IMG/VR virus record: IMGVR_UViG_3300021963_000036
Reading direction: 5' to 3' (one strand)
Source: a virus
Lineage: Duplodnaviria > Heunggongvirae > Uroviricota > Caudoviricetes
Length of the DNA: 64,000 bases
The position numbers and the translations under genes were made by a program. The notes below the pieces were generated by a model that did not search any database, had not been told where the DNA came from, and was given only the letters and a program-made list of their open reading frames with translations. Positions within the stretch are counted from its first letter, which is position 1, and each line of letters begins with the position of its first letter. Positions 1,866 to 53,040 of this stretch are shown in pieces.

Positions 1866-1869
1866 GACA

Positions 1870-5936: not shown

Positions 5937-5956
5937 GACCACCGAAAATAGTCTAG

Positions 5957-5986
5957 AAAAAGAGCGCTTCGGCGCTCTTTTTTGTT
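5957..5986 (+). terminator. rho-independent terminator
   Basis: AAAAGAGCGC-ttcg-GCGCTCTTTTTTG. Confidence 0.7.
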
Positions 5987-6036
5987 TACATTGCCGGATA
6001 CATGTGATAAGTATAACTTAAGAAAAGGAGATCAAC

Positions 6037-8458: not shown

Positions 8459-8835
8459 AGCTTTCAGAAGAAATCGCTAACATGACTGCTGTTATGGAAA
8501 CTGACAGCAGTCAACCAACACGACAAGAAGTGTACACGATCTTGCTTCGAGCATTCGTCGAACTTCGTATGTTAGAAAATCGTATCCGTTCCTTAGAAGG
8601 AAAACTCGAATGACTGAACTCATTTTGTATTATGTATTGCCGAATGTCGTGATGTTTGGTGGACTCTATCTTCTCGCAACAGGTATTGAAAACCTGACGT
8701 GGAAGTTCATTCTCTGGTATTGTGACAACTACTGAACTTTACCTGTTGACATCACTCTGCAACAATTACCGAAGTCAACAAGAATGAATTTCATGTTTCT
8801 GACTTCTCTCATCTTCGTAAAGTCTGAGGTATATC

Positions 8836-9960
8836 ATGCACTACAAGTTTCCTGAAATTCGCACGATCTATGATGTGTTGCTTGCGATCGAAGGTCGCCC
8901 AGAGTTCATCGTTGCCGAGCGCGACTTTGGCAAAGTGATCAACTACATGGTCTCGATGCCAGACACTTTCAAGATGGAAGGTCCTGACGACGTGATGGGT
9001 GCTATTCGTCGTGAGTGTCGAGGCTTGATCTTCGACGATGAAGGCAACATCATGTCTCGCCCGTATCACAAGTTCTTCAACGTGAACGAGAAAGAAGAGA
9101 CTCAGTCGCATCTTCTCGACTTGACTCGTGCTCACTCTGTGATGGATAAGTTGGATGGTTCTATGATCCGTCCGATCTGGATGCATGACACGGTTCGTCT
9201 TGCTACGAAGATGGGTGTGACTGACATTGCGATCGAAGCTGAGAAGCTGCTGGATTATGATCAGTGGACGTGGCTTGAAGATATGATGGTCGACAGTCTG
9301 ACTCCGATCTTCGAATACGTTGCTCCGACGAACAAGATCGTTGTTGAGTATGCTGAAGAAAAGCTAATCTTGACCGGTGTTCGCGAAAACGTTAGCGGTG
9401 AATATCGTAGCTTGCGCCAGTGGAATGCACCGTTTGAAATCGTTCGCACTGACTCGAATGTTCATGACTTCGATGCTTATCTTACTTTCAAGCGCGGTGA
9501 AACGAACCGTGAAGGTGACATCATCCGCTTTGCTGATGGACATATGATCAAGATCAAGAACGACTGGTACGTGCAAATCCACAAGACCAAGGACGTCGTT
9601 CGTGTTGATCGCAACATCGTTGAACTCGTACTAAACGAGACGATCGACGATACTCGCGCCGTACTTGATCCTTCGGACTTGGTTCGAGTCGATGAAGTCG
9701 AAGCTAACTTTTGGAAAGCTTTCGAGAATGTTGTTGGTCGATTGGAAGGGCTGGAACTCTTGGCTCGCACTATCTACGGTGCCGACAAGAAACGTATCGC
9801 TTTGGAAATGGCTCCGAACTTGATTAACAAACAGGATGCCGGTTTCATGTTCAAACTGATCGACGGTCATGACGTTCGTGAACTGTTGCTGACCCATTGT
9901 AAGAAGAACATCGGTTCGACTCCGAAGTATGATGAACTGATGGAATGGATGAAAGCATGA
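8836..9960 (+). CDS. rnlA: RNA ligase 1 (T4 Rnl1/gp63-like)
   Basis: HKFFNVNE (T4 Rnl1 has EKFFNLNE) and motif I MDKLDGSM; length matches T4 Rnl1. Confidence 0.8.
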   Translation: MHYKFPEIRTIYDVLLAIEGRPEFIVAERDFGKVINYMVSMPDTFKMEGPDDVMGAIRRECRGLIFDDEGNIMSRPYHKFFNVNEKEETQSHLLDLTRAHSVMDKLDGSMIRPIWMHDTVRLATKMGVTDIAIEAEKLLDYDQWTWLEDMMVDSLTPIFEYVAPTNKIVVEYAEEKLILTGVRENVSGEYRSLRQWNAPFEIVRTDSNVHDFDAYLTFKRGETNREGDIIRFADGHMIKIKNDWYVQIHKTKDVVRVDRNIVELVLNETIDDTRAVLDPSDLVRVDEVEANFWKAFENVVGRLEGLELLARTIYGADKKRIALEMAPNLINKQDAGFMFKLIDGHDVRELLLTHCKKNIGSTPKYDELMEWMKA

Positions 9961-10280
9961 CATCGGAAACTGAACTAAACTACTACGAAGAGCTTTGCAG
10001 ACTTAAGGTCCAATACAAAGCTCTTCGTGAAGAATACTTCTTGGTGTCAGCTTCTTCGCGCTTTCATGACATTGAAGAAGGAGACTTTTGTCCGGAGTGC
10101 AATGGTTCTGGCTACAAGTTGTATGGTTCTACCGCAACTTGGAGAGGTGGCATCGGCGGACAAGCTATGACTACTTCAGTATGTGATAAATGTTGGGGTT
10201 CTGGCTCTAAGTCGGCTCCTTGGCCATCATGGAGAGAATACGAAGCTCTAAAAGAAAGGTTGACAAATGACTCCGTTTAG
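9957..10280 (+). CDS. zinc-ribbon protein
   Basis: CPECNGSGYK ... CDKCWGSGSK paired CxxC motifs. Confidence 0.45.
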   Translation: MTSETELNYYEELCRLKVQYKALREEYFLVSASSRFHDIEEGDFCPECNGSGYKLYGSTATWRGGIGGQAMTTSVCDKCWGSGSKSAPWPSWREYEALKERLTNDSV

Positions 10281-10461
10281 AGTAGATTTTGATCAAGTAA
10301 ATTACATGAAATTTCGTCCAGGAACCAAACTTGTGCTTGGACCAGAAATTGCTATAGTGATGGCTTCGTGCAATAAAATTCCGCGCGTGTTCAAGCCTAT
10401 TGTTGATTTGTCAAAAATGATGCATCACCCTGAAGTCGAAGCACTTCTGTTTGGAGTATGA
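10267..10461 (+). CDS. hypothetical protein
   Basis: 64-aa ORF overlapping the upstream stop. Confidence 0.3.
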   Translation: MTPFRVDFDQVNYMKFRPGTKLVLGPEIAIVMASCNKIPRVFKPIVDLSKMMHHPEVEALLFGV

Positions 10462-10723
10462 CATGAAAGTACGTGAAGCGTTTCCCGGATTTACTACGCT
10501 GTTCAAGCACTGCCGTCCAGCCGCTGGTGATGCGGTTGTATATGAAGTCGATGCTGGAGCACCAGCCGATCCAAACCTTGTTATGAAAGCATCTTGCTTT
10601 GATGATGAGAAACCCGTTGGTGAAACGTTCGAGTTCATTATCTCTAAGGAATGGGTTCTTGAAAACATTGTAAGTATCCTAGCTGCGTACGAACCAGTTG
10701 ACAATGTAGCAAGTTCGGTATAA
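10451..10723 (+). CDS. hypothetical protein
   Basis: 90-aa ORF. Confidence 0.35.
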   Translation: MEYDMKVREAFPGFTTLFKHCRPAAGDAVVYEVDAGAPADPNLVMKASCFDDEKPVGETFEFIISKEWVLENIVSILAAYEPVDNVASSV

Positions 10724-10748
10724 TATCCGATTGAAATAGGAGATAAGA

Positions 10749-11870
10749 ATGTTCGAACGTAAACTAGCGTCTATTCGGCGCATCGCTGACATCCAACCGA
10801 TCGAAGGCGCTGATCAAATTGTAGTCGCCACCATCGATGGCTGGAAAGTTGTTGTTAAAAAAGATGAGTTTCGAGTTGGTGATCTTGCAGCATATCTTGA
10901 GATCGACTCGTGGGTTCCTCATGAACTCGCCCCATTCCTCTCGAAAGGTCAAGATCCTCGCGAATACAACGGTGTGAAAGGTGAACGCCTGCGCACTATC
11001 AAACTTCGCGGACAGGTTAGTCAAGGGCTGCTGCTTCCACTTCGGCCAGTGTTTGCAGAGTGGACTGATGAGAATTTTCAAAAGAATATTCTTGAAGATG
11101 AGGAACGTGTCGGCGACGATCTTACTGAAGCACTTGGCATCCAGAAATGGGAAGCTGTGCTGCCTGCACAACTTCAAGGTCAGGCCAAAGGCACGTTCCC
11201 AACGTCACTGATTCCAAAGACTGATCAAGAGCGTATTCAAAACTGCTTTGGTGAAATCCAAAAGCGGGCAAAGCGGTTCGCTACTGAGAAGGTCTGGAAT
11301 GCTGAGACTCAGACTCTGGAAGAGCATCCAGTTGTTGTTCCTACTGACTTCAAAGAACAGACCTACGAAGTCACCATGAAACTGGATGGTTCGAGTTGTA
11401 CTATCTTCCGCTGGGAAGACGAACTTCGTGTTTGCAGTCGGAACCTTGAGCTCAAGATCAACGATGAAAACAAAGACAACACCTTCGTTGCCATGGCTCT
11501 CAAGATCGGCGACCGTGTTCCTAATGGGTTTGCTTTTCAAGGTGAAGTGATGGGACCTGGCATTCAGGCCAACCGTGAAGGATTTATTGAACATAAGTTC
11601 TTCGTGTTTGATGTGTTCCTCATTAAAGAACATAAGTATGCCGGTCCAGCCTACCGGCGAGCGTTTTGCCAAGAATACGGATTCGAACACGTTCCAGTTC
11701 TTGAGCATAATCTCAAGGCACCCGTGAGCGTCGCAGAAGGTCTTGCTATGGCAGAAGGTCCGAGCATCAACCACAAGATCCGTGAAGGTCTTGTTTGGAA
11801 GTGCAACGAAGACCCGAGCTTCAGCTTCAAGACGATCAGCAATCAGTTCCTGCTGAAAGGTGGGGACTGA
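10749..11870 (+). CDS. second ATP-dependent RNA ligase, Rnl5/DraRnl-like, with an N-terminal OB/tRNA-binding-like domain
   Basis: Motif I MKLDGSSCTIF at residue ~211; the N-terminal 100 aa (IRRIADIQPIEGADQIVVATIDGWKVVVKKDEFRVGDLAAY) follows the Trbp111/CsaA OB-fold pattern. Confidence 0.55.
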   Translation: MFERKLASIRRIADIQPIEGADQIVVATIDGWKVVVKKDEFRVGDLAAYLEIDSWVPHELAPFLSKGQDPREYNGVKGERLRTIKLRGQVSQGLLLPLRPVFAEWTDENFQKNILEDEERVGDDLTEALGIQKWEAVLPAQLQGQAKGTFPTSLIPKTDQERIQNCFGEIQKRAKRFATEKVWNAETQTLEEHPVVVPTDFKEQTYEVTMKLDGSSCTIFRWEDELRVCSRNLELKINDENKDNTFVAMALKIGDRVPNGFAFQGEVMGPGIQANREGFIEHKFFVFDVFLIKEHKYAGPAYRRAFCQEYGFEHVPVLEHNLKAPVSVAEGLAMAEGPSINHKIREGLVWKCNEDPSFSFKTISNQFLLKGGD

Positions 11871-17725: not shown

Positions 17726-17926
17726 ATGAAAAAGATCGTCATTCTCTCTGTTCTTCTTCTTTCTGCTTGTGCTAGTGCTGGCATTCCGATCGAACAAGAT
17801 CGTGAAATGCAGTTGCAGTACATGCAAGATGTTTCTGAGCGTAAAGTGTTTCGACCTGAAGTGTATGCTGAACCAGAGTTCGAAGCAGACTGTGAAGAAT
17901 ATCAAATGGAAGAATGCTTCAATTAA
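17726..17926 (+). CDS. small lipoprotein
   Basis: MKKIVILSVLLLSAC lipobox-type signal peptide. Confidence 0.45.
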   Translation: MKKIVILSVLLLSACASAGIPIEQDREMQLQYMQDVSERKVFRPEVYAEPEFEADCEEYQMEECFN

Positions 17927-17937
17927 GGAATAAAAAT

Positions 17938-19182
17938 ATGCGAATGTTTCTGGTCGGTGGCTTTGTCCGCGACCACCAAATGGGTATGATGCCACAAGAC
18001 CGCGACTATGTCGTTACTGGCACAACTGAAGAAGAATTCCTGAAAGCTTCACCCTTTGGGCATACGTTCTCAAAGGTTGGTGCAGCATTTCCAGTTTACA
18101 TCGATGATACCGGCAATGAGTGGGCTCTGGCTCGTCGCGAAAAGAAAGTCGGTAAAGGTTATCATGGCTTCGAATCAACCTCTGGTCCTGAAGTGACGAT
18201 CGAAGAAGATCTGTCTCGTCGTGATCTGACCGTGAATGCTATGGCTATCGAGATCTTCGAAGATATGAAGACTCGCATCGTCAACACCATCGATCCTTTC
18301 AACGGTCAAGAAGATCTGAAGAACAAAGTTCTGCGACACACCTCTGATGCTTTTGCTGAAGATCCTGTTCGTGTTCTGCGACTGGCTCGATTCCGTGCAC
18401 GCTTTGGCCCTGAATGGACAGTTGCTCCAGAGACTGTTGCTCTGGTTTCTTCGATGGCGAAGAAGGGTGTTCTGAATGAGCTGACGGCTGAACGTGTTTG
18501 GAAAGAACTGAGTCGAGCTCTGATGGAAGATCATGCACGGCTGTTCTTCGATACTCTGCTGGAATGTGATGCGCTGCATGTTCTGTTTCCAGAAGTCTAC
18601 AAACTGAAGACTGCTCTGGAAGCGCGGCGTTGGCACCCAGAAGGTGATGCTTACGAGCACACTATGCTGGTTCTGACTCAAGCTGTCGAGAGCAACTTCG
18701 ATCTGGAGACACGACTGGCTTGTCTGGTTCACGACTTCGGCAAGGGTCTGACTCCTCGTGATCAACTGCCCAAGCACTACGGGCACGAGGTTTCGGGTGT
18801 TAAGGTTGCTAAGGACTTCTGTGATCGTCTGACTGTTCCGTCGAAGATGCGGGATCGAGTGATGAAGACCACTCGTTTCCATATGCATATGCATAAGCTG
18901 GATACCCTGAACCCAAAGACTTGGGTAAAGATGTTCATGGAAATGGATGCGTTTCGTGATCCGGAAGTCGTCCTGCTGCTGTGGGCTGTTGGTGTCTGCG
19001 ATGAAAACGGTCGACTGGGTTCTGAGGACTCCGATACTTCTCACCTGATGAAGGTTCGACAAGTCTTCGATCGTGTTCGTATGGTAAAGTTTGCCGATGT
19101 CTTTCCGAATGGTGAAAAGAACCCTATGAAGATCAAGGACGGTATCTTCAAAGCGCGTGTTCAGGCGGTTAAGTCTGCCTGA
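17938..19182 (+). CDS. cca: tRNA nucleotidyltransferase (CCA-adding enzyme) with C-terminal HD domain
   Basis: GGFVRD and RRDLTVNAMA polymerase-beta-type head motifs; VHDFGKG HD motif; start at MRMFLVGG with AAGGAA RBS. Confidence 0.8.
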   Translation: MRMFLVGGFVRDHQMGMMPQDRDYVVTGTTEEEFLKASPFGHTFSKVGAAFPVYIDDTGNEWALARREKKVGKGYHGFESTSGPEVTIEEDLSRRDLTVNAMAIEIFEDMKTRIVNTIDPFNGQEDLKNKVLRHTSDAFAEDPVRVLRLARFRARFGPEWTVAPETVALVSSMAKKGVLNELTAERVWKELSRALMEDHARLFFDTLLECDALHVLFPEVYKLKTALEARRWHPEGDAYEHTMLVLTQAVESNFDLETRLACLVHDFGKGLTPRDQLPKHYGHEVSGVKVAKDFCDRLTVPSKMRDRVMKTTRFHMHMHKLDTLNPKTWVKMFMEMDAFRDPEVVLLLWAVGVCDENGRLGSEDSDTSHLMKVRQVFDRVRMVKFADVFPNGEKNPMKIKDGIFKARVQAVKSA

Positions 19183-26367: not shown

Positions 26368-26552
26368 GCGCAAAAATTACAGGTATATCACGAGTAAAAA
26401 CCGATGTTGACGGTGAACCATATATAGAATTCAATCCTCGTCTCCTAGCCCAAGTGGGCTGGGATGACAGGACTCTTCTCGAATGGGAAGTGATGGGCAA
26501 CATGGCTGTCATAAGGAAGAAAGAAGATGGCGGGAATAGCACGACAAGGTGA
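26364..26552 (+). CDS. small protein with AbrB/MazE-like swapped-hairpin pattern
   Basis: KITGISRVKTDVDGEPYIEFNPRLLAQVGW resembles SpoVT/AbrB/MazE N-terminus; weak. Confidence 0.3.
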   Translation: MSAKITGISRVKTDVDGEPYIEFNPRLLAQVGWDDRTLLEWEVMGNMAVIRKKEDGGNSTTR

Positions 26553-26826
26553 TTCAGTAGCAACTGGACATTTATGTGATACTACAACTACTTTAGACAC
26601 ACCTGGACAGTCGACTGTTTTTGTCGACGGTATCCTTGTTGCATGTCAAGGTGATTTAACAGTAACTCACGACTATAAGGTCGGTGATGCATGTGTACCC
26701 CATGTTGCATCAATTTCTGGTGCGACTTCAACTGTAAAGATCGGTGGTATATCCATCGCAAAATTAGGCGATGCTTGTGATGCAGGATCTATCACTAGTG
26801 CGTCATCAACTGTATTCATAGGATAA
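26527..26826 (+). CDS. PAAR-repeat spike-tip protein (T4 gp5.4-like)
   Basis: Three PAAR-like repeats: ARQGDSVATGHLC, VFVDGILVACQGD, VKIGGISIAKLGDAC; 99 aa. Confidence 0.6.
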   Translation: MAGIARQGDSVATGHLCDTTTTLDTPGQSTVFVDGILVACQGDLTVTHDYKVGDACVPHVASISGATSTVKIGGISIAKLGDACDAGSITSASSTVFIG

Positions 26827-26828
26827 TC

Positions 26829-27323
26829 ATGATAGGATTCAGGCAGTTTATGGAAAGAGCACCAACAAAGAAGTACGTAGCCGTACAGTATGATGCCGCC
26901 ACTCAGAAGAAGCTTCGTAAATGGGCTGAAGACAATGGTTTTGACTTGTCAACAAAGTACGACGGAACCAAACAGGATCCAGAAGACTTCGACTTTCATA
27001 CGACGATCTTCTTCACGTCTTCAGAGCACGATATTCCAAACTATATCAAGACAATTGCCCCGTCTGGAAGCGCAAAAGTAGTTGACATTATGATGCTTGG
27101 GGTTAATAATGACATACCTGTTCTGAAGATAGAATCACCTATGGTGTTACGTCTGCGTAAGCACTATGAGGATGCTTTCGATATGAAAGACGAGTGGCCT
27201 GAGTACAAGCCACATGTTTCCATATCGTACTCGAAAGATCTGCCTGACATGAACAAAGTGAAACTACCAACGTTTGAACTAACGTTTAACCAAGTGAAAG
27301 TTGATGATGGAGCAAGTTCGTAA
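26829..27323 (+). CDS. 2H phosphoesterase (LigT / 2',3'-cyclic phosphodiesterase-like)
   Basis: Two H-x-T/S-x motifs: FHTTIFF and PHVSISY, ~90 aa apart. Confidence 0.5.
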   Translation: MIGFRQFMERAPTKKYVAVQYDAATQKKLRKWAEDNGFDLSTKYDGTKQDPEDFDFHTTIFFTSSEHDIPNYIKTIAPSGSAKVVDIMMLGVNNDIPVLKIESPMVLRLRKHYEDAFDMKDEWPEYKPHVSISYSKDLPDMNKVKLPTFELTFNQVKVDDGASS

Positions 27324-31280: not shown

Positions 31281-33407
31281 ATGTCTCTTCTCACTAAAAA
31301 GTCTATCCTCGCCCGTCTGCTCGCGAATGAAAATGTCGCTGTTGAGCAGACGAACCATCACACAGCTTTCTTCGATGTCACCAACCGCGTGCTCGGTCTT
31401 CCGTTCTGGAAGGACATCGACAAAGATCTATACGATCTTCTAGTCGGCCACGAAATCGGCCACGCTCTCTTCACTCCGGCTGACGGCTGGCATTCCTGCA
31501 CTACCGATATTCCCGGTTGCCCTCGTGACTACGTGAACGTCGTTGAAGACATCCGCATCGAAAAGAAAGTCCTGAGCAAGTATCCAGGGCTGCTCGCTTC
31601 GTTCATGCGCGGCTACCAAGATCTTCTCAATCGCGACTTCTTCGGTCTTTCCAAGAAAGAGATCAACAAACGTTCCTTCATGGATCGCTTGAACGTCTTC
31701 TCTAAGTCTCGCGGCTTGGTGAAAGTCCACTTCAATGAAAAAGAACAACCCTACGTTGATATGGCCATGGCCGTAGAAACTTGGGAAGATGTTATCGAAG
31801 CTTGCCGCAAAATCTACGAATTCGTCAAGGGCGAAATTCAAAACGAACAAAATGCTGATCCTGACGAACAAGCATCTGGTATGCCTTCGAAGGTGATCAT
31901 CAAAGCCGGTAAGCCAAATGAAAAAGGTGAAGAGCTTTCGAAAGAAGAGATGGAAGCCATCGTGAATGGCGACATCGAAGTTGAGATCGACACCGAGTCC
32001 TTCGAGGCAGCAGCTGGTGAAGAAGGTGAAGATGGCGACGAAGGTCAAGACGGTCAAGGTTCTTCTTCGAATGAAGAAGGTGATGAGGAAGCTGAAGCTG
32101 CTCCTAGTGTTTCCACTGGTGCTGGTTCGGCTGCTGATCAAGTCGACACTGACAAAGAGTTCCGGAACAACTTCATGAAGAAGCTGGTCGACTCAGTCAA
32201 TACCGGCGGAAAGACTCTCTATGCAAAAGGTCCTACCGTTCAACAAGCAATGGCGACCATCAGCAGCTACGAAGATGTGCACGACTCTCGCTTCAGCAAA
32301 CTTCGTGCTGAAGACGAAAAGTACAAGAAAGCTCTTGCTGAAACGAAGCAGACCGTGATGCTTATGGTCAAAGAATTCGAAATGCGTAAAGCAGCTTATC
32401 GCTCTGCTCGAGCTCGAGTGTCGACCAAAGGTAGCCTCGACGTTAATCAACTCCACAAGTACAAGTACGACGACCAGCTCTTCAAGCAAGTCACCTACTT
32501 GGCAGACTCTCAATCTCACGGCATGATGATGCTGGTGGATTACTCCGGATCGATGTCGAATACCATCAAAAGTGTTCTCAAGCAGATCGTAGTGATGGTT
32601 GCCTTCTGCAAGCGAGTGAACATTCCCTTCGAAGTTTACGGCTTCACATCTATGGTAGCCGGTCCAAGGTTCGAAGCGAAACGCTTGATGGTTGAACGTA
32701 CCGCTTCGAAGTTGACGAGCGTCAGCATGGTGGGTTCTCATATTTTCAAGTTGATCGCCTCTGATATGTCGAAGCCAGTCTACGAAGAAGCATATCGTTC
32801 ACTGTGGGCTCAAAGCTACTATGGCGCAAGCTACCGTGGCAACCTCGAGCAAATGAATGGTACTCCACTCAACACTTGCCTGTTGACTATGATGCAAGTA
32901 ATCCAAACTTTCAAAGCTAAGCACAAAGTCCAGAAGATGAACTTCATCACTCTGACTGACGGTGAAAGCGAAAACATGGGTGTTCAGTACGGTATCGACA
33001 CTCAGAACCGCGGGCAGAAGTGTATCGTTAACCACATGGGCTTCAACATCGAGCAAATGTTTGGTTATGGACATGCAGCTCTGAACACGAAGAACATCTT
33101 GGAATGCTTCACCAAGATGGGTGTTCGCACTATGAACTACTACGTCAACCCTGATCGCTACCAGCTCAGCCAAAAAGCTGTAAAAGAGTTGAGCAAAGAA
33201 GGTCTGTCAGTGGTCGACAATGATGGTGGCTATGATCGCCGGTTCTACCTCCGCAATAACTCTGAGCAACTGACTGGTGTTGTGGCTGACATGGACTTTG
33301 ATGATACGGCCACTTCGTCGAAGATCGCTCGCGAATTCTCCAAGCATGCCACTTCCAAGCAAAACGCTCGGACCTTGGCTTCGAAATTCGCCGAAGTTAT
33401 TTCGTAA
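31281..33407 (+). CDS. cobT: CobT-like protein with C-terminal von Willebrand A domain (partner of the MoxR ATPase)
   Basis: 708 aa; central acidic low-complexity linker; C-terminal MIDAS-type LVDYSGSMSN; N-terminal HEIGH motif. Confidence 0.6.
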   Translation: MSLLTKKSILARLLANENVAVEQTNHHTAFFDVTNRVLGLPFWKDIDKDLYDLLVGHEIGHALFTPADGWHSCTTDIPGCPRDYVNVVEDIRIEKKVLSKYPGLLASFMRGYQDLLNRDFFGLSKKEINKRSFMDRLNVFSKSRGLVKVHFNEKEQPYVDMAMAVETWEDVIEACRKIYEFVKGEIQNEQNADPDEQASGMPSKVIIKAGKPNEKGEELSKEEMEAIVNGDIEVEIDTESFEAAAGEEGEDGDEGQDGQGSSSNEEGDEEAEAAPSVSTGAGSAADQVDTDKEFRNNFMKKLVDSVNTGGKTLYAKGPTVQQAMATISSYEDVHDSRFSKLRAEDEKYKKALAETKQTVMLMVKEFEMRKAAYRSARARVSTKGSLDVNQLHKYKYDDQLFKQVTYLADSQSHGMMMLVDYSGSMSNTIKSVLKQIVVMVAFCKRVNIPFEVYGFTSMVAGPRFEAKRLMVERTASKLTSVSMVGSHIFKLIASDMSKPVYEEAYRSLWAQSYYGASYRGNLEQMNGTPLNTCLLTMMQVIQTFKAKHKVQKMNFITLTDGESENMGVQYGIDTQNRGQKCIVNHMGFNIEQMFGYGHAALNTKNILECFTKMGVRTMNYYVNPDRYQLSQKAVKELSKEGLSVVDNDGGYDRRFYLRNNSEQLTGVVADMDFDDTATSSKIAREFSKHATSKQNARTLASKFAEVIS

Positions 33408-33423
33408 AGCTACACTTAGGGGG

Positions 33424-33452
33424 TTGACACTTCTCCCTAAGTGACTTATATA
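33424..33452 (+). promoter_or_regulatory. sigma70-type promoter (TTGACA-17-TATATA) whose -35 lies in the loop of a 7-bp hairpin
   Basis: ttgaca at 33424-33429; CTTAGGG (33415-21) pairs with CCCTAAG (33435-41). Confidence 0.5.
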
Positions 33453-33487
33453 GAATAAGTAAGCTAATCAAAACTCAGGAGACTTAA

Positions 33488-34624
33488 ATGTCCGACATCC
33501 AGTTCTTCATCGATGCTATCCGCAGTGCCAACAACGGTTCTTCTACCTTCACTCGTAAGCAGATGTTTGACTTCGCGAAAACCGCCGGTGTTAAGCAGAA
33601 AATCGTTTGGGAGACGATCAAATCTCGCCCGTCTCAGACTCGCGGCATCGTTGATCTTTCCGCTACAGTTACTCAATTGCATCCCATCCAAGATGCTCCT
33701 GCTCCAGCCGTAAAAGCCAAAGTTCAGTCGACTTCCAACGAAGACTGCTATGTTCCTTCGAAGTTGAAGACCTACGTCAAGTGGGGCCACGCAAAAGACA
33801 TCACCCAGATAATCGCTTCTCGTATGTTCTATCCTGTCTATGTCACCGGCCTCTCGGGCAATGGTAAGACCATCATGATCGAACAAGCTTGTGCTGACCT
33901 CAACCGCGAATACATCCGAGTTCAAATCACTCCTGAGACTGATGAAGACGATCTGATCGGCGGCTTCCGTCTTGTGAATGGTGAAACGGTCTTTGCCAAG
34001 GGTCCGGTTATCAAAGCGATGGAAGCCGGTGCGATCCTGCTTGTCGACGAGATCGACCGCGGTTCGAACAAGTTGATGGCTCTTCAAGGTGTCCTTGAAG
34101 GTAAGCCGGTCATGATCAAAAAGACTGGTGAGGTTATCATCCCTGCTAATGGCTTCAACATCATTGCCACGGCAAACACCAAGGGCAAAGGTTCTGAGGA
34201 TGGCAAGTTCATCGCAGCGACCATCATCGACGAAGCTTTCCTTGAACGGTTCACCATCACGATGGAACAACCTTACCCCAACCAGTCGGTTGAAAAGAAA
34301 ATCGTGATGAAGCACATGGAACTCTTCGGCGAAGTTTCTGACGAGTTTGCAGAGCTTCTGACCAAGTGGTCTCAGGCTATCCGCAAAACTTATGAAGACG
34401 GTGGTGTGGACGAACTCATCTCCACTCGTCGACTGTGCCACATCGTTCAAACTTTCTCGATCTTCAAGAACCGGAAGAAAGCAGTTGAACTCTGTGTGTC
34501 TCGCTTCGATGATGATACCCGCACGGCCTTTGTTGATCTTTACACGAAGATCGATGCTACTGCTCCGACGGTTACTCCGGTTGCTGCAGATGAAGAAGAC
34601 TACCGCAATGACTCTCCCTTCTAA
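33488..34624 (+). CDS. cobS: CobS-like MoxR-family AAA+ ATPase
   Basis: Walker A GLSGNGKT, Walker B ILLVDEIDR, sensor region ...IIATANT. Confidence 0.8.
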   Translation: MSDIQFFIDAIRSANNGSSTFTRKQMFDFAKTAGVKQKIVWETIKSRPSQTRGIVDLSATVTQLHPIQDAPAPAVKAKVQSTSNEDCYVPSKLKTYVKWGHAKDITQIIASRMFYPVYVTGLSGNGKTIMIEQACADLNREYIRVQITPETDEDDLIGGFRLVNGETVFAKGPVIKAMEAGAILLVDEIDRGSNKLMALQGVLEGKPVMIKKTGEVIIPANGFNIIATANTKGKGSEDGKFIAATIIDEAFLERFTITMEQPYPNQSVEKKIVMKHMELFGEVSDEFAELLTKWSQAIRKTYEDGGVDELISTRRLCHIVQTFSIFKNRKKAVELCVSRFDDDTRTAFVDLYTKIDATAPTVTPVAADEEDYRNDSPF

Positions 34625-34633
34625 GGAAATACA

Positions 34634-34984
34634 ATGCTAATTTCAGGAATCTGTCTTGTGGCTATCTTGGCCACAAGTTTCAATATCCAAGGTGGCCAAG
34701 AAGTCTTGGCTCTTGTCGTTTCTGGCGTAGCTGCTATGTTCTATGGCCTTATGTGTCGACTCATGGTTGGTCTATCACAGGCTGAATTGAATCATGATGC
34801 TGACATCCATAAGATGCTTATGTCATACTCCATTCAAGTAACTTCAGTAGCTATCGTGTTCATGGGACCATATTATCAAATCGCTTTGGTTGCTATGCCA
34901 TGGATCGCTATTGCAACCTTTAGCAACACTCTCTCAGTGTTAGCCAAATTTGGTTATTTGGAGATCCACGATCGTGACAAATAG
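34634..34984 (+). CDS. multi-pass membrane protein; candidate holin
   Basis: 116 aa with 3-4 predicted TM helices, directly upstream of the SAR-endolysin candidate. Confidence 0.35.
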   Translation: MLISGICLVAILATSFNIQGGQEVLALVVSGVAAMFYGLMCRLMVGLSQAELNHDADIHKMLMSYSIQVTSVAIVFMGPYYQIALVAMPWIAIATFSNTLSVLAKFGYLEIHDRDK

Positions 34985-35050
34985 GGTTGACAGCATCAAC
35001 CTTATGTGATAAGTATTGGTTACCGAAGTAAACAAACAGAGGTACTTACT

Positions 35051-35677
35051 ATGAAACTTTCAACATACATCGGACTAGGATTGTCCACGGCTACGGTTAT
35101 CGCAATGTCAGCTATTACTGTTAATGCATATGGTGACAATAATATTCCGATGAATCCTATTCAAACTGAAGTTTTTGATCCAACATTCGGATCCTCTTTA
35201 CTAAATATTCCAACGTATGATCCAGTTGTAATCACTAACGTGATTGTGGAAGTTATAGAATATCAAAAAGAACGCGACTGTCTAGCTCAAAACATTTACC
35301 ACGAAGCAATGGGTGAGTCAGAGCTTGGCCAACGAGCTGTTGCTTATGCTACCATTAATCGTACGAAAGATAACAGGTATTCTACCAGCATCTGTGAAGT
35401 GGTACATCAGGCAGTACTTGACGACAACGGCCAACCAATTCGTAACAAGTGCCAATATTCGTGGTACTGTGATGGTAAGTCTGACAAGATCAAAGACGAA
35501 GAAGCATATGAAGAAGCAATAAGGGTTGCTACCATTGTTATAAATACGTATGGTAATTCATTCGACCCTACGATGGGTGCGACCATGTACCATACTGACG
35601 ATGTTAAGCCAGAATGGCGCACTTCGTTCAACAAAACTACTGAGATCGAAAATCACATCTTCTATAGTAAGGAGTAA
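35051..35677 (+). CDS. SleB-type cell-wall hydrolase; candidate signal-anchor-release endolysin
   Basis: Hydrolase_2/SleB motifs NIYHEAMGE...GQRAVAYATINR; weakly hydrophobic Gly/Ala/Ser/Thr-rich N-terminal segment YIGLGLSTATVIAMSAITVNA. Confidence 0.55.
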   Translation: MKLSTYIGLGLSTATVIAMSAITVNAYGDNNIPMNPIQTEVFDPTFGSSLLNIPTYDPVVITNVIVEVIEYQKERDCLAQNIYHEAMGESELGQRAVAYATINRTKDNRYSTSICEVVHQAVLDDNGQPIRNKCQYSWYCDGKSDKIKDEEAYEEAIRVATIVINTYGNSFDPTMGATMYHTDDVKPEWRTSFNKTTEIENHIFYSKE

Positions 35678-35679
35678 CC

Positions 35680-35946
35680 ATGACTCGAGTTGTTCAACGT
35701 GTTCAGATGACTAGCGATACCGTTACCATCCGAACTTCCATCGGCGCTTTTAAAGTTCTTACTGTTCATGAACGAGAAGGCGTTCCAACCGTTTGGTACG
35801 AAACACTTGAGAAGGCGGTTGTTCCCGTCGAAGTAACATTCACTATTGTACCAACTGGCGGTGCGGTTCCTGATCACTCGATATATGTCGGTACTGCATT
35901 TGTGGACAACAGAGCCTCACACATCTATCAACATCCAGACGTGTGA
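35680..35946 (+). CDS. hypothetical protein
   Basis: 88-aa ORF coupled to the upstream stop. Confidence 0.35.
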   Translation: MTRVVQRVQMTSDTVTIRTSIGAFKVLTVHEREGVPTVWYETLEKAVVPVEVTFTIVPTGGAVPDHSIYVGTAFVDNRASHIYQHPDV

Positions 35947-36111
35947 GTAGAACATGAGTGAAGTCAAAACAGAAGAAGAAAAAGACGAGGGCTACACTCA
36001 GCGTGAATGGGATCGTACCGTAGGTATCGGAAAGGTTCCAGAAGAATATGCTAAACGCATCAAAACATATGAAGAAAAACAACGTAGGTATGATCGAGGC
36101 TAAACTTTTTG

Positions 36112-36141
36112 TTGACATTAACGAGTAAGTAGTGTATAAAT
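36112..36141 (+). promoter_or_regulatory. sigma70-type promoter (TTGACA-17-TATAAAT, also matching T4-late TATAAATA) driving the ORF-free ssrA-like region
   Basis: ttgaca at 36112-36117, tataaat at 36135-36141. Confidence 0.5.
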
Positions 36142-36159
36142 AGACTTGTAGTGATGATA

Positions 36160-36485
36160 TTCACTGAACACGTTCTGGACTCGGGGGCGGTACCCGAATC
36201 GTCCACCACAGATACCGGTCAGTTTATGGAACCCTTGGATGTATGAAGTATTGCTATCATATGGCGAGATAAGTTTATGTAAACAAGAAGATCGGTATCT
36301 TTGCTGGGCGATAAATAGGATCGACAGGCGAACTAGGCAGGATGGAGCTATCGGGATCTAAGCACCGTTATCGCGAAGAAACTTACAAATGCAAATGAAA
36401 ATTCTGCACCTGTAGCTTACGCTCTCGCAGCCTAATCTACATGGGTATGGGTTCCACCTCGAAACAGAACGGGCCCGCTTACACA
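36160..36485 (+). ncRNA. ssrA: circularly permuted (two-piece) tmRNA, ssrA-like: acceptor piece ~36160-36208, intervening hairpin 36210-36300, coding piece ~36306-36485
   Basis: No ORF longer than 30 codons across ~400 nt. GGAC-TCGGG-GGCGGTA-CCCGA-ATCGTCC-A-CCA at 36177-36208 reads as T-arm, 3' acceptor strand, discriminator and CCA. GGGCGAT at 36306-36312 pairs with ATCGTCC to give a G3:U70 wobble, and is followed by AAATA-GGATCGACAGG (E. coli tmRNA 5' end is GGGGCUG-AUUCU-GGAUUCGACGGG). Tag ORF at 36391-36435. CGTTCTG at 36171-77 pairs with CAGAACG at 36465-71. Confidence 0.65.
36391..36435 (+). other. tmRNA tag reading frame: GCA resume codon ... TAA, encoding ANENSAPVAYALAA*
   Basis: GCA AAT GAA AAT TCT GCA CCT GTA GCT TAC GCT CTC GCA GCC TAA; A-rich stretch before the resume codon as in E. 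coli; ends in the ClpXP/SspB-type YALAA. Confidence 0.6.
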
Positions 36486-36513
36486 ACACACATTTACACA
36501 TGAGGCATATAAC

Positions 36514-37377
36514 ATGGCAAATTCACGTCGCATTACTGCACAAGCTGCAGTTATCCCAACTTACATCGGTGGATACGTTCAACCCGCTACTTCTGCAATT
36601 CCTACAGGCAATCTTAGCACTTTGACAATCCCTTCACCAATTACCGCACCGGCAAATCTAGTCGACGCTTTCAAACCGAAGCGTGCAGGTAAGAACCCTA
36701 AGCTTTCTCATATCGTATTCGTTCTGGATGAATCGTCTTCGATGTCGTCCTGCTGGGATCAAACTGTTTCTGGCTATAACGAATACCTGAAAGCTCAAAA
36801 GGAAGATGCTGAGAAGACCGGCATTGAGACTTTGGTATCTCTTTACAAATTCAATGGTTATGATGTCAAAGCTATCTTTGATCGTCAGAACGTTCAAGAA
36901 GTTCAGCCACTTGATAAGAATAGCTATCGCCCAAGTGGTGGTACTAACCTTCATGATGCTATGGGTGGCGTCATGATGAAGATCAACTTGCTTCTTTCAG
37001 AAAAGAAGAAAGCTGATCGCGAATCGGTTATCATCACTGTTCTAACCGATGGTGAAGAAAATCAATCCCGCACTTTCCGCTCGACCGACGTTAAAGGTAT
37101 GGTCGAAAAAGCTGAAGGCAAGAACTGGGGCTTCATGTTTCTTGGTGCTAACATCGATGCGTTCCATGCTGGCTCTGCTCTTGGTTTCAATGTGAATAAC
37201 ACCATGCAGTTCGCAACTGCTAATGCCGCTGAGACTATGCGTGGTGCTTCTGCTATGACTTCTCGTATGAAAGGTGCATATGCTTCTGGTATGGACACCG
37301 GTTCTACTTATGCAGCTACAGCATTCTTTGACAGCGAACGTTCTGCTGCTGTAGGTGACAAAGATGCAGGGAAATAA
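36514..37377 (+). CDS. von Willebrand factor A (VWA) domain protein
   Basis: MIDAS motif FVLDESSSMSS, downstream TDGEEN, GANIDAF. Confidence 0.65.
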   Translation: MANSRRITAQAAVIPTYIGGYVQPATSAIPTGNLSTLTIPSPITAPANLVDAFKPKRAGKNPKLSHIVFVLDESSSMSSCWDQTVSGYNEYLKAQKEDAEKTGIETLVSLYKFNGYDVKAIFDRQNVQEVQPLDKNSYRPSGGTNLHDAMGGVMMKINLLLSEKKKADRESVIITVLTDGEENQSRTFRSTDVKGMVEKAEGKNWGFMFLGANIDAFHAGSALGFNVNNTMQFATANAAETMRGASAMTSRMKGAYASGMDTGSTYAATAFFDSERSAAVGDKDAGK

Positions 37378-49583: not shown

Positions 49584-51439
49584 TAGGCGAAAATGGCTTT
49601 GACAATTTAGTATGGTTCATGGGTCTTGTTGAAGACAACAACGACCCGCTGAGCGGACGTGTGCGTGTGAGAGCATTTGGTTTTCATCCTCCCTACTCAG
49701 ACGGTTTAGTTGCGACTGATGATCTTCCTTGGGCACATGTTGTTCGTGATAGTAAGTTTGCTTCTGTTCCAGACAATGGAGATTTAGTCGTTGGCTTCTT
49801 TATGGATGGACGCGATGCACAACATCCTATCGTAATCGGCGTCTTGAACAGTGCTAAGTTCTCTCTACCAACAACTTCGAATCCATATTCTTCGCCAGGA
49901 AATACCGGTCGCACTCCACCTACTGGTCAAGGTAAACCTGTTCCAGTCGGACAATCTGCAAACAAAACACTAGAGCCATATCAACGTGCTTTTCTTGATG
50001 CGACTGCTTCAAAGGAATCTGGTGGTGCTTATAACATTCGATACGATGGAAAAGCTGGATCTACATTTGACTTATCTACTGGACAACATCCAAATGTAAG
50101 AGTTCCTCTTGGTAATGGTCAGTATTCAACAGCTGCTGGTCGTTATCAATTCACATATAGTACATGGCAAGAAATTTCTGGAGGTGCGCCATTCACACCA
50201 GAAAACCAAGACTACTACGCATATCAACTCGCAAAGCAGCGCTATCCGGGAGATCTCGATGCTGAGCTACAGTCAGGTGGGCTTAACTCAAACATCCTGA
50301 CTGCATTGACTCCAACTTGGGCGTCATTTGAATCTGGAAATCAGGCATCAATCATCGCCACTTATAATCAAAGTATGGCAGGCCAAGGTGTATCAACTCC
50401 TACAGCAAATACCGCGAATCCAGTAGCTGCTTACGAGAATCCTTATGTCGCTCCTTCTCAAGATGCGATTGACAACTTCGGCAACGGTGCTATGCCACCA
50501 CAGATCTCTGGCGAAAATCTACAGTACACTCCTGCAGTGATCCAAGCCACGGCTAGAAAAGATGTTGCATTCTCTGGTACTGGAGCTTATACAGCAAGCG
50601 AACCAGGTGTCCCAGTGTCAGGTTCAATCAAAAGTTCTGTATGGAGCACTCGTCATGGAGGTTCTCATATTGAGCTATCCGGTAAAACCTCAGATGAAGA
50701 ATATATAAGCATCACCCATGCAAGCGGCTCACGTGTTACTCTTGACTCTCACGGTAACGTTACCGTTAAAGCGTTTGGTAAGCTTCATCTTTCATCTGAA
50801 GGTGTGAGTGAAGACATCTCTGATGGCACAAAGATTAGTAATCACAAAGGTGGTTATATGCTTGAAGTTTCAGGAGGTAACATGGATGTTACCGTAATGG
50901 GCGATTTAAACTTCACTGCATCAGGTGACATTAAACTGAATGCTGGTAGAAAAATATCGATGTCTGCAGGTGATGCTATCGATGCAGCAGGATCTAAGAT
51001 CGCTCTTACTGCAAAGGTAGATGCAATTGATATTGTTGCTGCGCAGAAACTCGCGCTCTATTCTGGTGGAACTGGATTAAGTATTCAGAGTGTCGAAGAC
51101 ATGTTTGTGCAAGCGAAGAACCTTAATTTGAAAGGCGACACAAATGCTGCGCTTCAAGCAAAAGGCGGTATGCTTAGCTTACAAAGTAAAGGATCACTTG
51201 CTCTTGCTGCTGAAGGTAATATTGGAATCGGCGCAGACGGCAATGTTGTTGCAAAGGGTGCTCAAATCCATCTGAATGATGGTGCTCCAGCTGCTCCAGC
51301 ATCAGCCGGAGATGCTTTGGCCGCTGTTGCAGCAAATGTACCAGATCCAGTTGGTGCTGGTATCTCAACTCCTACAAAACCACTTCCAACTCCTGGTCAT
51401 ATCTCACCTGAAATGTTAGACGAAAGCGGACCACAATGA
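49580..51439 (+). CDS. 5: gp5-like baseplate central spike with lysozyme-like domain and C-terminal beta-helix
   Basis: N-terminal OB-like region (RVRVRAFGFHPP..DLVVGFFMDGRDAQHPIVIGVL); central SGGAYNIRYDG...AAGRYQFTYSTWQ hydrolase-like region; C-terminal ~250 aa of Gly/Ser/Ala-rich beta-helical repeats. Confidence 0.7.
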   Translation: MIGENGFDNLVWFMGLVEDNNDPLSGRVRVRAFGFHPPYSDGLVATDDLPWAHVVRDSKFASVPDNGDLVVGFFMDGRDAQHPIVIGVLNSAKFSLPTTSNPYSSPGNTGRTPPTGQGKPVPVGQSANKTLEPYQRAFLDATASKESGGAYNIRYDGKAGSTFDLSTGQHPNVRVPLGNGQYSTAAGRYQFTYSTWQEISGGAPFTPENQDYYAYQLAKQRYPGDLDAELQSGGLNSNILTALTPTWASFESGNQASIIATYNQSMAGQGVSTPTANTANPVAAYENPYVAPSQDAIDNFGNGAMPPQISGENLQYTPAVIQATARKDVAFSGTGAYTASEPGVPVSGSIKSSVWSTRHGGSHIELSGKTSDEEYISITHASGSRVTLDSHGNVTVKAFGKLHLSSEGVSEDISDGTKISNHKGGYMLEVSGGNMDVTVMGDLNFTASGDIKLNAGRKISMSAGDAIDAAGSKIALTAKVDAIDIVAAQKLALYSGGTGLSIQSVEDMFVQAKNLNLKGDTNAALQAKGGMLSLQSKGSLALAAEGNIGIGADGNVVAKGAQIHLNDGAPAAPASAGDALAAVAANVPDPVGAGISTPTKPLPTPGHISPEMLDESGPQ

Positions 51440-53040
51440 GCTGTAACACATTCAATTCTCCTACATCAAAATTCTCTGAAGCAGCTTTAACGACTGATCA
51501 GTTGAGAGCAAATCTGTATAGTTTCAATAGTCTTATAGATGTTCAAAACGACCCAGTAAAACGCTACGACGTTGTAAGTGTATCACTTGCAATAAGCGGT
51601 ACTTATACACTGTTTAATAATCTTACAAATAAAGATGAATATGAATACCTACACGATAGAATTAATCGTGGTATTATTCCTTCTTCTGAATATGCTGACT
51701 TCCTAGATAAAAGCAAAATAAGTTTAGATGCAATTACTGCTATGATGAATGGATTACTTATTGGTCTACAACCATCAGATTATCTATCACAATTAGATCA
51801 ATACTATAATAAGAATTTTGCGAATAGTCAAACAGGTGGTTTCTGTTCACTATTTAACGGCGCAGTAATGCAGTTACTCGGATTAGTTTCATCTGCAGCA
51901 AATATGATTAATCAATTGAAAAATGGTCTTGCTTCTATTATTGCCCAATTGATGTCTTTTAAAGATTTGTTACATAATCTAGTTGATAAGTTAAAAGATA
52001 TGATGCTTAAGCAGATTCAGAATATTGTAAATCAAGCTATGGGTGCAGTATCAAAAGTAATTGGCGCAGCAACTTTCTTTATGAACAAAGCAAAACAAGT
52101 TCAAGCTTTCTTTAGTGATGCTAATATCGCGAGCCTAAAAGCAAAGATCGAAGAGATAATGTCTCAAATGGCCGGCGGATATGAAAAACTTACACCAGAA
52201 GTGATAGCATATCTTCTATTTAGATTGTGTCAATTAAGTGAAGTAATAACTAATTTTATGAAGTCTCCAGTCGATGGTCTTAATGCTTTAATTAGTAACT
52301 ACGCAATGCAAGAAATGGTATTGACAAACTTCTCGAATGAAGCATCAATGAGAGCTGTACAAGCCGGTGGGTATCGCATGGATCCATTCGAAGTAGCTCG
52401 ACTTAGATCTGAAGCTGCTTCTAAAATCAATTCTGATTATTCTGGAGAAGGTTCTGTTGATCCTTCAAGTTATATCACAATGGGATTCACACAAGAAGAA
52501 ATCGAGATGGCGATGAATATTACTGACGCTGGTAATAAGTATCTAAAATTTCAACCTCAAGTTCTAAGTCAAAATGACCCCGTCGAAGGGGCTGGTTATA
52601 AGTATGTAAAACATGAAGTATGGATGAGAATATTTAGAATATCAAGAAGACTTGGTATCCAACTATATTGCAATAGCGGATATCGTAGTCCTACATATAA
52701 CGCTAAGCAGCCAGGTTCTGCAAAGAGCAGTCTTCATATGTCGGGGATGGCTTGTGATATTAGCATGGATAACGTGCCGAAATCTAGAATTCCGGAATAT
52801 ATCAAATACGCAAGTCAAGAGGGATTCCAAGGTATGGAATACTACGCTTCTGGTAACTTCGTACACACTGACATTGGTAATAGACGTAGATGGTATCCTG
52901 GCAATGGTGCTACACCAAATGCTATTGAAGATGCTATACAAATTCATATGAAAGACGGATTTAGAAGAGGCAGACCTGCTGATCCAATTCAACCAGCAGC
53001 TCCATCTACTCCAGCAACACCACGCTTTGGACTTCAATAA
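51436..53040 (+). CDS. baseplate/tail protein with C-terminal peptidase M15 (VanY-like peptidoglycan peptidase) domain
   Basis: C-terminal SGYRSPTYN ... SSLHMSGMACD ... FVHTD (zinc-site H-x6-D ... H pattern). Confidence 0.55.
   Translation: MSCNTFNSPTSKFSEAALTTDQLRANLYSFNSLIDVQNDPVKRYDVVSVSLAISGTYTLFNNLTNKDEYEYLHDRINRGIIPSSEYADFLDKSKISLDAITAMMNGLLIGLQPSDYLSQLDQYYNKNFANSQTGGFCSLFNGAVMQLLGLVSSAANMINQLKNGLASIIAQLMSFKDLLHNLVDKLKDMMLKQIQNIVNQAMGAVSKVIGAATFFMNKAKQVQAFFSDANIASLKAKIEEIMSQMAGGYEKLTPEVIAYLLFRLCQLSEVITNFMKSPVDGLNALISNYAMQEMVLTNFSNEASMRAVQAGGYRMDPFEVARLRSEAASKINSDYSGEGSVDPSSYITMGFTQEEIEMAMNITDAGNKYLKFQPQVLSQNDPVEGAGYKYVKHEVWMRIFRISRRLGIQLYCNSGYRSPTYNAKQPGSAKSSLHMSGMACDISMDNVPKSRIPEYIKYASQEGFQGMEYYASGNFVHTDIGNRRRWYPGNGATPNAIEDAIQIHMKDGFRRGRPADPIQPAAPSTPATPRFGLQ

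Follow-up and report, generated by a model that had tools for sequence, protein, structure and literature searches.

The 64,000-nucleotide stretch of IMG/VR virus record IMGVR_UViG_3300021963_000036 analysed here (hereafter the window) carries a gene for a putatively exported SleB-type cell-wall hydrolase and, directly upstream of it, a gene for a predicted four-helix membrane protein, which we term orf116. We propose, with a probability of roughly 0.55, that the two proteins form a lysis module present in a subset of uncultured T4-like (Kyanoviridae-like) myoviruses. An initial annotation of the same DNA had described the pair as a lysis cassette composed of a multi-pass, holin-like protein and an endolysin of the signal-anchor-release (SAR) type. 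Both open reading frames (ORFs) exist, the first at 34634-34984 (116 amino acids, aa) and the second ending at 35677, with the start of the hydrolase now revised to 35051 and its length to 208 aa. The window covers 64 kb of a genome of ~130-140 kb, the remaining ~70 kb of which lie outside view. The two genes and the parts of the hydrolase are as follows.

34634-34984, plus strand: orf116, 116 aa, four helices; candidate holin-like partner.
35051-35677, plus strand: hydrolase gene, 208 aa, ATG start, GAGG 7 nt upstream.
35051-35128, plus strand: Sec-targeting hydrophobic segment MKLSTYIGLGLSTATVIAMSAITVNA, residues 1-26 (from hydropathy and alignment).
35129-35266, plus strand: variable linker, residues 27-72 (from alignment and the AlphaFold, AF2, model).
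35267-35677, plus strand: catalytic domain of the SleB/CwlJ-type Hydrolase_2 family, residues 73-208 and the stop codon; Glu85 codon at 35303-35305.

The hydrolase most likely begins at the ATG at 35051 rather than at the GTG at 35006, since its homologs all begin with MK... or MT... at this position and the -10 box of the promoter described below lies downstream of the GTG. A search of Pfam returned Hydrolase_2 (PF07486) over the whole profile (positions 1-100 of 100; E=2.1e-20), the score of 73.6 bits lying well above the cutoff of 27, and PHROG 938, labelled 'endolysin', was matched with E=3e-23. Alignment with the catalytic domain of Bacillus cereus SleB (4F55) paired the glutamate of the NIYHEA motif, E85, with the YGE of SleB. 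The AlphaFold model of the protein has a predicted local distance difference test (pLDDT) score of 81 overall and above 90 over most of residues 61-208, and a Foldseek search with this model matched SleB structures only (4F55 and 4FET; target-normalised template modelling score 0.70-0.77, probability 1.00). Glu85 is present in 202/202 distinct homologs. The residues Cys77, Cys115, Cys134 and Cys140 are all found in 200/202, and in the protein of Stenotrophomonas phage DLP_6 C134 and C140 are missing jointly; this joint loss and the set of four cysteines fit disulfide pairs and folding in the periplasm. Sequence and model together thus place the protein solidly among the SleB/CwlJ-type peptidoglycan hydrolases, as the initial annotation had read from its SleB/Hydrolase_2 signature.

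On its domain composition the protein is nevertheless not a SleB ortholog, as Pfam finds Hydrolase_2 only and no N-terminal PG_binding_1 domain, which SleB proper possesses. It has in common with the Bacillus SleB/CwlJ spore-cortex enzymes (4F55, 4FET) the catalytic fold and the catalytic glutamate motif, but differs from them in its four conserved cysteines, in the missing PG_binding_1 domain and in a long insertion (Q120-K143) that belongs to the phage and proteobacterial branch; identity is ~23%, and the substrate of the window enzyme cannot be the muramic-lactam cortex. Support for the protein as a phage endolysin is at the level of annotation, namely the label of PHROG 938 and the RefSeq designation 'endolysin' on PAK_P1-like homologs. 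Identity of the window hydrolase to the PAK_P1-like and Xanthomonas phage hydrolases is ~29-36%.

The product of orf116 had been described as having multiple membrane-spanning helices, and its hydropathy profile agrees, revealing four hydrophobic blocks of which two are clearly transmembrane and two marginal. The AF2 model likewise contains four helices at low confidence (pLDDT 59, too low for a fold search). Lysine and arginine are limited to loop 2 and the tail, which suggests that both termini are cytoplasmic (N-in/C-in) and that the periplasmic loops are very short. Six close homologs were identified, and a profile search against 1.84 billion representatives added 59 relatives matched over their full length; these homologs are 113-125 aa long. 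Conserved among them are G46, Y37, Y80, P89-W90 and an acidic tail of the form phi-E-I-x-D-x-D-E; the tail of orf116 itself reads GYLEIHDRDK, and family tails average 4.5 D/E against 1.9 K/R per sequence. Comparison with the related locus L009 showed 49 synonymous and 30 non-synonymous codon changes, which argues that orf116 is a real gene under purifying selection.

Searches for a known family were negative. No PHROG family matched orf116, Pfam searches with 23 family members (E up to 10) returned no recurring family, and tblastn of orf116 and the distant members P0131 and P0141 against 50,697 cultured phage genomes gave zero matches. The family is new here, being matched by neither Pfam nor PHROG and having no member among cultured phages. 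Weak matches of three members to CbtB, a cobalt-transporter subunit (E=0.039; 14.5 bits, the cutoff being 27), were dismissed as an effect of composition. The small size of orf116, its membrane helices and its charged, hydrophilic C-terminus are nonetheless features typical of holins and support its candidacy as a holin-like partner. The holin-like CidA/LrgA proteins are similar in outline, at ~120-150 aa with four membrane helices and a charged tail, and are genetically linked to murein hydrolase activity; LrgA is, however, missing even among the weak Pfam matches of the 23 orf116-family members.

The evidence that carries the proposed module is the linkage of the two genes. Close homologs are found in the order CobT-like, CobS-like, orf116, Hydrolase_2, DUF7352, and family members merely 22-28% identical to orf116 retain the order CobT-like, CobS-like, membrane protein, Hydrolase_2. 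In every lineage in which an orf116-family gene was found (10/10), it lies directly upstream of a gene for an exported wall hydrolase. At locus L016 the slot after the membrane protein (5132-5608) is occupied not by Hydrolase_2 but by a CHAP-domain protein with a lipoprotein-type signal, LLLLPSC; the CHAP match has E=1.8e-4, below the gathering score. This CHAP gene is itself followed by one for a secreted protein with a C-terminal membrane anchor (5691-6260). Among 80 CobS loci fetched from IMG/VR, ~70 had enough downstream sequence to judge. In ~65 of these, CobS is followed by a soluble DUF protein and gp45, with neither membrane protein nor hydrolase; two carry the membrane protein, and only these hold the pair. 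As the ~65 CobS loci devoid of the membrane protein are also devoid of the hydrolase, the membrane protein appears to track the exported hydrolase and not CobS. At a further locus, L150 (1124-1877), a 177-aa Hydrolase_2 protein, hydrophobic at its N-terminus, lacks an orf116-family neighbour and is followed by a different, holin-like membrane protein of 59 aa with a single pass and a strongly basic tail. In genome comparisons, linkage combined with the exchange of one hydrolase type for another usually marks a holin-endolysin module, and it supports such a reading here; strengthened by this new linkage evidence, the lysis-module interpretation of the two genes is a reasonable one. The immediate neighbours of the pair are listed below.

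33488-34624, plus strand: CobS-like AAA+ ATPase, 378 aa (Pfam AAA_5, E=4.7e-19; CbbQ_C).
35680-35946, plus strand: DUF7352 protein, 88 aa, soluble (Pfam, E=2.3e-11).
35954-36103, plus strand: highly charged ORF of 49 aa with no membrane segment and no PHROG match, called as a gene in related contigs.

The DUF7352 gene follows the hydrolase in L004-L010, L018 and L019 and is absent in L011-L015; as it is found in this place only in the window's own sub-lineage, it is probably not part of the module core. Both the DUF7352 protein and the 49-aa ORF were considered as spanins and ruled out, as neither has a membrane segment or a lipobox.

Hydrolases of this family are widespread in phages, and the idea in the initial annotation that few phages use them must be corrected: tblastn detected homologs in 1070 of the 50,697 phage records, in phages of Salmonella, Escherichia, Pseudomonas, Klebsiella, Vibrio and others, so SleB-type lysins are not rare. 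Hydrolase_2 ranks among the dominant lysin domains in phages of Gram-negative hosts (PMC8223927). Melnitz, DLP_6 and pf16 are T4-like relatives that carry it, and in pf16 it is the putative endolysin (PMC5587285). A close system is that of the Vequintavirinae (Pectobacterium phage CB7 gp83/gp82 and Cronobacter phage CR3_087; also rV5, PVP-SE1 and BME3), in which, as in the window, a SleB-like gene lies among the replication and regulatory genes of a large myovirus, beside the gene for a small membrane protein (PMC7344957, PMC12210895). The SleB-like proteins of these phages have a signal peptide, are toxic in Escherichia coli and neighbour a holin candidate, and a part in lysis has been attributed to CR3_087 (PMC7344957). 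The general design of an exported SleB-type hydrolase with a membrane protein is therefore already known, at annotation level, in other large phages. The window differs from the Vequintavirinae in that its partner belongs to an unrelated family, has 116 aa and four helices and is encoded upstream in a separate transcription unit, and in that the Vequintavirinae carry a second lysin.

How the enzyme would leave the cytoplasm depends on its N-terminal segment. The weakly hydrophobic, Gly/Ala/Ser/Thr-rich character noted in the initial annotation was borne out: the best 19-residue Kyte-Doolittle mean is 1.63, and the four residues account for ~55% of the 22-residue uncharged stretch (counted on the 99% identical homolog P0007). 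By an approximate calculation, insertion would cost +2.1 kcal/mol, more than for the canonical SAR domains of P1 Lyz (+0.5) and R21 (+0.8). Since the segment is so weakly hydrophobic, a role as a stable membrane anchor is unlikely. An N-terminal hydrophobic segment is present in 118/120 of the best metagenomic homologs, which indicates that export is a family trait.

Within its 26 residues the segment has the n (MK), h and c (SAITVNA) layout of a typical signal peptide, ending in a putative signal-peptidase site, V24-N25-A26↓Y27, that fits the -3/-1 rule. Position -1 is alanine in 14/14 homologs, and position -3 is valine in 13/14 and threonine once. Small-x-small sites were found in all five diverged lineages that have the membrane partner (VNA↓Y, ANA↓E, ASA↓E, TCA↓E and AVA↓S). 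Downstream lies the linker, in which residues 23-36 have pLDDT below 50, residues 21-50 average 45-53, and residues 58-72 are modelled as the beginning of a long helix. Linker length ranges from 0 to 50 residues among homologs, the linker being absent or short in those of 175 aa. With a linker so long and variable between segment and catalytic domain, tethering alone would not be expected to hold the enzyme off the wall.

These observations bear on the SAR designation of the initial annotation, of which the weak hydrophobicity stands and the remainder is in doubt, as the conserved VNA↓Y site and the variable linker of ~45 residues are unlike known SAR enzymes. A true SAR endolysin with a pinholin, in which an uncleaved helix keeps the enzyme inactive in the membrane until orf116 depolarises it, is a possibility that we consider doubtful, though it is not without attraction. 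Besides the composition and approximate insertion energy of the segment, its conservation is better than would be expected of a disposable signal peptide: pairwise identity is 67% in the segment compared with 28% in the linker and 83% in the catalytic part. T5, G8, T15, A26 and Y27 are invariant across 14 homologs and S12 is present in 13/14; T5, G8, S12, T15 and A26 share one helix face, and the invariant Y27 directly follows the putative cleavage site. A G-x-L-S motif recurs in the segments of distant relatives. A -3/-1 site is missing altogether from some relatives, among them those of the ...ILTVEELK type and the strongly hydrophobic P0087 type, which is truly anchor-like. A cysteine is also found within the segment in ~14/120 Hydrolase_2 relatives, mostly in a sub-group ending ...AYA↓E (examples are P0059, P0067, P0070, P0081, P0086, P0099, P0104, P0115 and P0124, and also L013 and L015), and recalls the activating cysteine in the SAR domain of P1 Lyz. 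The window protein, however, has no cysteine in its segment, and the signal-peptide layout, the small -3/-1 residues retained in each partner-bearing lineage and the low-confidence linker all speak against an uncleaved, regulatory helix. In P1 Lyz and R21, the SAR helix belongs to the regulated catalytic domain.

The window pair resembles the systems of phage 21 (R21/S21-68) and P1 (Lyz) in that the muralytic enzyme is exported, has an N-terminus that is weakly hydrophobic and rich in Gly/Ala/Ser/Thr, and is encoded beside a small membrane protein, and control would likewise be by membrane depolarisation. It differs in that the enzyme is of SleB type and not T4-lysozyme-like, in its signal-peptidase-type site and long variable linker, and in a membrane protein with four helices instead of two and no match to a holin family. 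No literature linking SleB with signal-arrest-release or SAR endolysins was found. On this balance a cleaved signal peptide is slightly favoured over SAR-like release, and under either mode the enzyme would become periplasmic. The former would correspond to Lys44 of Oenococcus phage fOg44, which is exported by Sec, loses its signal peptide and waits outside the membrane to become lytic once the holin dissipates the membrane potential; there the host is Gram-positive and the catalytic domain is a different one. No secreted endolysin of this cleaved kind is known to have been established in T4-like phages that infect Gram-negative hosts.

The following elements separate the two genes or lead into the second.

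34987-35015, plus strand: sigma-70-type, early-class promoter, TTGACA-17 nt-TAAGTA, with TTGACA at 34987-34992.
34985-35001, plus strand: inverted repeat GGTTGA-CAGCA-TCAACC, directly past the orf116 stop codon and overlapping the -35 box; no T-run.
35020-35045, plus strand: conserved 5' leader consisting of the 14-mer TTACCGAAGTAAAC followed by AAACAGAGGT, which includes the Shine-Dalgarno sequence GAGG.

The initial annotation had called this promoter strong. Its TTGACA box and 17-nt spacer are confirmed, but the -10 box, TAAGTA, is a poor one, matching TATAAT at 2/6 positions, and a strict consensus scan did not report the promoter, so the sequence alone gives no grounds for calling it strong. 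The pattern TTGACA-N17-TANNNW, which it fits, nevertheless occurs 16 times over positions 178-39719, compared with 1.9 expected, and every site is on the plus strand; the sites frequently follow a GG and lie immediately before a gene. The -35 box and a -10-like box are conserved at the corresponding position in eight related, diverged loci, one of which (L011) has a perfect TTGACA-17-TATAAT downstream of a terminator. Enrichment of the class and conservation support the view that the hydrolase promoter is real. The TAAATA -10 boxes of L009, L018 and L019 double as the T4-type late motif ATAAATA, and in L016 a terminator and a late promoter of T4 type, TATAAATA, precede the CHAP gene. In the window no such late promoter occurs upstream of orf116 or the hydrolase, the nearest lying inside the hydrolase gene at 35539; GATAAGTA at the -10 position is one base off ATAAATA and was not counted as a late promoter. 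Elsewhere in the window, TATAAATA motifs stand back to back at 46668 (plus strand) and 46697 (minus strand), between divergent blocks of structural genes.

The inverted repeat, which a terminator-like scan listed on the minus strand, may form a transcript-end or attenuation hairpin. The same position is taken by different hairpins in L009, L018 and L019 and by full terminators in L011 and L016. Having its own promoter, the hydrolase would be transcribed separately from orf116, which closes the upstream CobT/CobS-like operon: no separate promoter precedes orf116, which starts 9 nt past the CobS-like gene, and the latter has an early promoter, TTGACA-N17-TATATA, at 33424-33452. The leader of the hydrolase is conserved in L004, L007, L009, L018 and L019. 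A second copy of TTACCGAAGTAAAC, with one mismatch, was noted at 8766-8779 (plus strand), just past another TTGACA box upstream of an RNA ligase gene. No hairpin masking the ribosome-binding site, of the kind found in T4 e, was detected: the fold of 35018-35080 is no better than that of shuffled sequences (z = 0.52), and in the leader alignment only an invariant 5-bp TTACC/GGTAA pairing was seen, with no covariation. Translational control by leader structure was rejected on these grounds.

An early-type promoter in front of a lysin gene is no departure from the practice of T4-like phages, as early promoters are also described before T4 e and Melnitz gp67. The promoter does, however, raise the question of whether the enzyme serves lysis at all. 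It could be an early periplasmic enzyme of wall remodelling that the four-helix protein modulates or localises, with final lysis performed by genes outside the window; possible purposes are cell enlargement, insertion of phage envelope machinery, recycling of peptidoglycan and alteration of the wall against superinfecting phages. We regard this as unlikely. It would account for the conservation across lineages of an early-class sigma-70-type promoter and for the position of the gene among replication and metabolism genes, and it finds parallels in the Vequintavirinae and Melnitz, which carry a second, separate lysin beside the Hydrolase_2 protein, and in the autolysin-like role that the Melnitz authors discuss for the other lysin, gp67. 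The long flexible linker would, moreover, let a tethered enzyme reach the wall with no release needed. Set against these points are the late promoter and terminator ahead of the L016 CHAP gene and the ATAAATA boxes of L009, L018 and L019, which make late expression plausible, together with the early promoters of T4 e. An exported hydrolase beside a small membrane protein, with exchange of the hydrolase type, is also a classical lysis-cassette signature, and homologs are toxic or lytic on expression (PMC7344957).

Equally improbable, in our estimation, is that adjacency reflects inherited gene order alone, orf116 belonging to a CobT/CobS-like (AAA+/vWA) operon and the hydrolase being an independent endolysin with another holin or none. 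The arrangement of promoters and the hairpin or terminator between the two genes would fit such a history, as would the CobT-like and CobS-like genes upstream in every orf116-family locus found, the sub-threshold CbtB matches, and the fact that most phage Hydrolase_2 genes have no such neighbour. Yet the CobS loci that lack the membrane protein all lack the hydrolase, the membrane protein is retained where CHAP replaces Hydrolase_2, and the CbtB matches are far under threshold and fall on a hydrophobic stretch.

The lysis module that we prefer has weaknesses of its own. Orf116 matches no described holin family profile in PHROG or Pfam, its tail is acidic and not basic, and it has no dual-start motif. 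Its co-occurrence with the hydrolase is confined to one phage lineage, so that the count of 10 lineages is inflated by shared ancestry, and most phage Hydrolase_2 genes have no orf116-type partner. A hairpin and a promoter separate the two genes, which are distinct transcription units, and orf116 sits at the end of an early operon and not in a late unit. An active muralytic enzyme exported under an early-type promoter, with no masking of the ribosome-binding site, should be dangerous to the cell. Another endolysin, holin or spanin may, finally, lie elsewhere in the ~130-140 kb genome; Melnitz carries both a GH108 and a Hydrolase_2 protein. Of the cassette first described, the parts supported are an exported hydrolase behind its own sigma-70-type promoter and, directly upstream, a small multi-pass membrane protein whose linkage to exported hydrolases has persisted through deep divergence.

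As we envisage the module, host RNA polymerase would transcribe the hydrolase from its own TTGACA-N17 promoter, the activity and timing of which we infer. The N-terminal segment would then carry the enzyme across the inner membrane via Sec, as suggested by its n-h-c layout, its occurrence among homologs and the cysteines, and the near-invariance of these four suggests oxidative folding in the periplasm. Either cleavage at VNA↓Y, slightly favoured, or SAR-like release would make the enzyme soluble in the periplasm, where its catalytic domain would cut glycan strands by means of Glu85, in keeping with the lytic-transglycosylase fold of SleB and the invariance of this residue. Until then it would be restrained, and the four-helix protein, having accumulated in the membrane, would lift this restraint by collapsing the membrane potential as pinholins and holins do; this step we infer only from the strict gene linkage and the CHAP-for-Hydrolase_2 swap. 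T4 offers a partial parallel, since the backbone is T4-like and the T4 lysin gene e is also located behind early-type promoters among early genes. The product of T4 e is cytoplasmic, however, and gains access to the wall only through the T hole, whereas the window enzyme carries its own export signal; homologs of T4 e or t were not detected in the window.

The T4-like backbone recognised in the initial annotation was confirmed by genes for RNase H, the gp33 coactivator, gp59, gp32, a T4_baseplate protein, gp53, gp25, gp6 and gp8. By this core gene order the phage is a T4-like myovirus of Straboviridae/Kyanoviridae type, and the window takes in its early/middle region together with the first part of the baseplate module. 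The CobS-like ATPase shares 51% identity with the CobS of Synechococcus phages (cyanophages). At the DNA level, positions 33400-36600 have no close relative among cultured phages, the sole match being a 62-nt stretch of transfer-messenger RNA (tmRNA) in Sinorhizobium phage Phosso. The corresponding gene, at 36108-36479 (plus strand) in the locus 36108-36526, encodes a permuted two-piece tmRNA that matches the alphaproteobacterial model of Rfam (alpha_tmRNA) with 102.7 bits. Its tag peptide is ANENSAPVAYALAA, and it has its own promoter, TTGACA-N17-TATAAA(TA), at 36112. The tmRNA type and the Phosso match hint at an alphaproteobacterial host. In Methylophage Melnitz a tmRNA gene is likewise located a few kb downstream of the Hydrolase_2 gene.

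Around the module lies a set of AAA+ and vWA genes, all on the plus strand: the CobT-like gene (708 aa, 31281-33407), whose product falls in PHROG 459, labelled 'peptidase', the CobS-like gene (33488-34624) and a vWA gene (287 aa, 36514-37377). No further lysin domain turned up in the ORFs that were scanned from position 1 to 46,000. Within the baseplate module, between a gp5-like spike (DUF2345) and gp25, a 534-aa protein (51436-53037, plus strand) has a C-terminal Peptidase_M15 domain and is probably a virion-associated peptidoglycan hydrolase used for entry in place of the lysozyme domain of T4 gp5. Other plus-strand genes include an NAD salvage pair at 252-3405, made up of a NadR-like nucleotidyltransferase-NUDIX fusion (252-1304) and a nicotinamide phosphoribosyltransferase (1954-3405). 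At 26527-27323 a small PAAR-motif protein (weak Pfam match only) is followed by an Acb1-family protein (anti-CBASS phosphodiesterase family), both labels being precomputed Pfam matches on identical contig genes. An RNA repair set at 8836-11870 and 17914-19182 consists of a T4 Rnl1-like ligase, an Rnl2-like ligase with an OB-fold domain and an enzyme of the CCA-adding/poly(A) polymerase family with an HD domain.

Little is known about how lysis is encoded in the abundant, uncultured T4-like phages that infect marine and freshwater bacteria, and their holins can almost never be identified by homology. The present analysis defines a concrete gene pair in such phages, an exported SleB-type hydrolase and a conserved four-helix partner found only beside exported wall hydrolases, and it is this uncharacterised family, strictly associated by gene order with predicted exported hydrolases, that is of remaining interest. 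Within the single family of lysins to which the enzyme belongs, the division between signal peptide, anchor and SAR segment varies. Should orf116 prove to be a holin or pinholin, it would represent a new holin family and would explain lysis timing in these phages. A bolder proposition, which we advance at long odds, is that the orf116 family is a new class of four-helix membrane regulator, holin or gatekeeper, of Sec-exported hydrolases in T4-like marine and aquatic phages, acting possibly before lysis. If so, the early-type promoters would point to remodelling of the host wall during infection, or to lysis timed through the membrane potential, a mode of timing unlike both that of T4 t/e and that of the classical SAR/pinholin systems.

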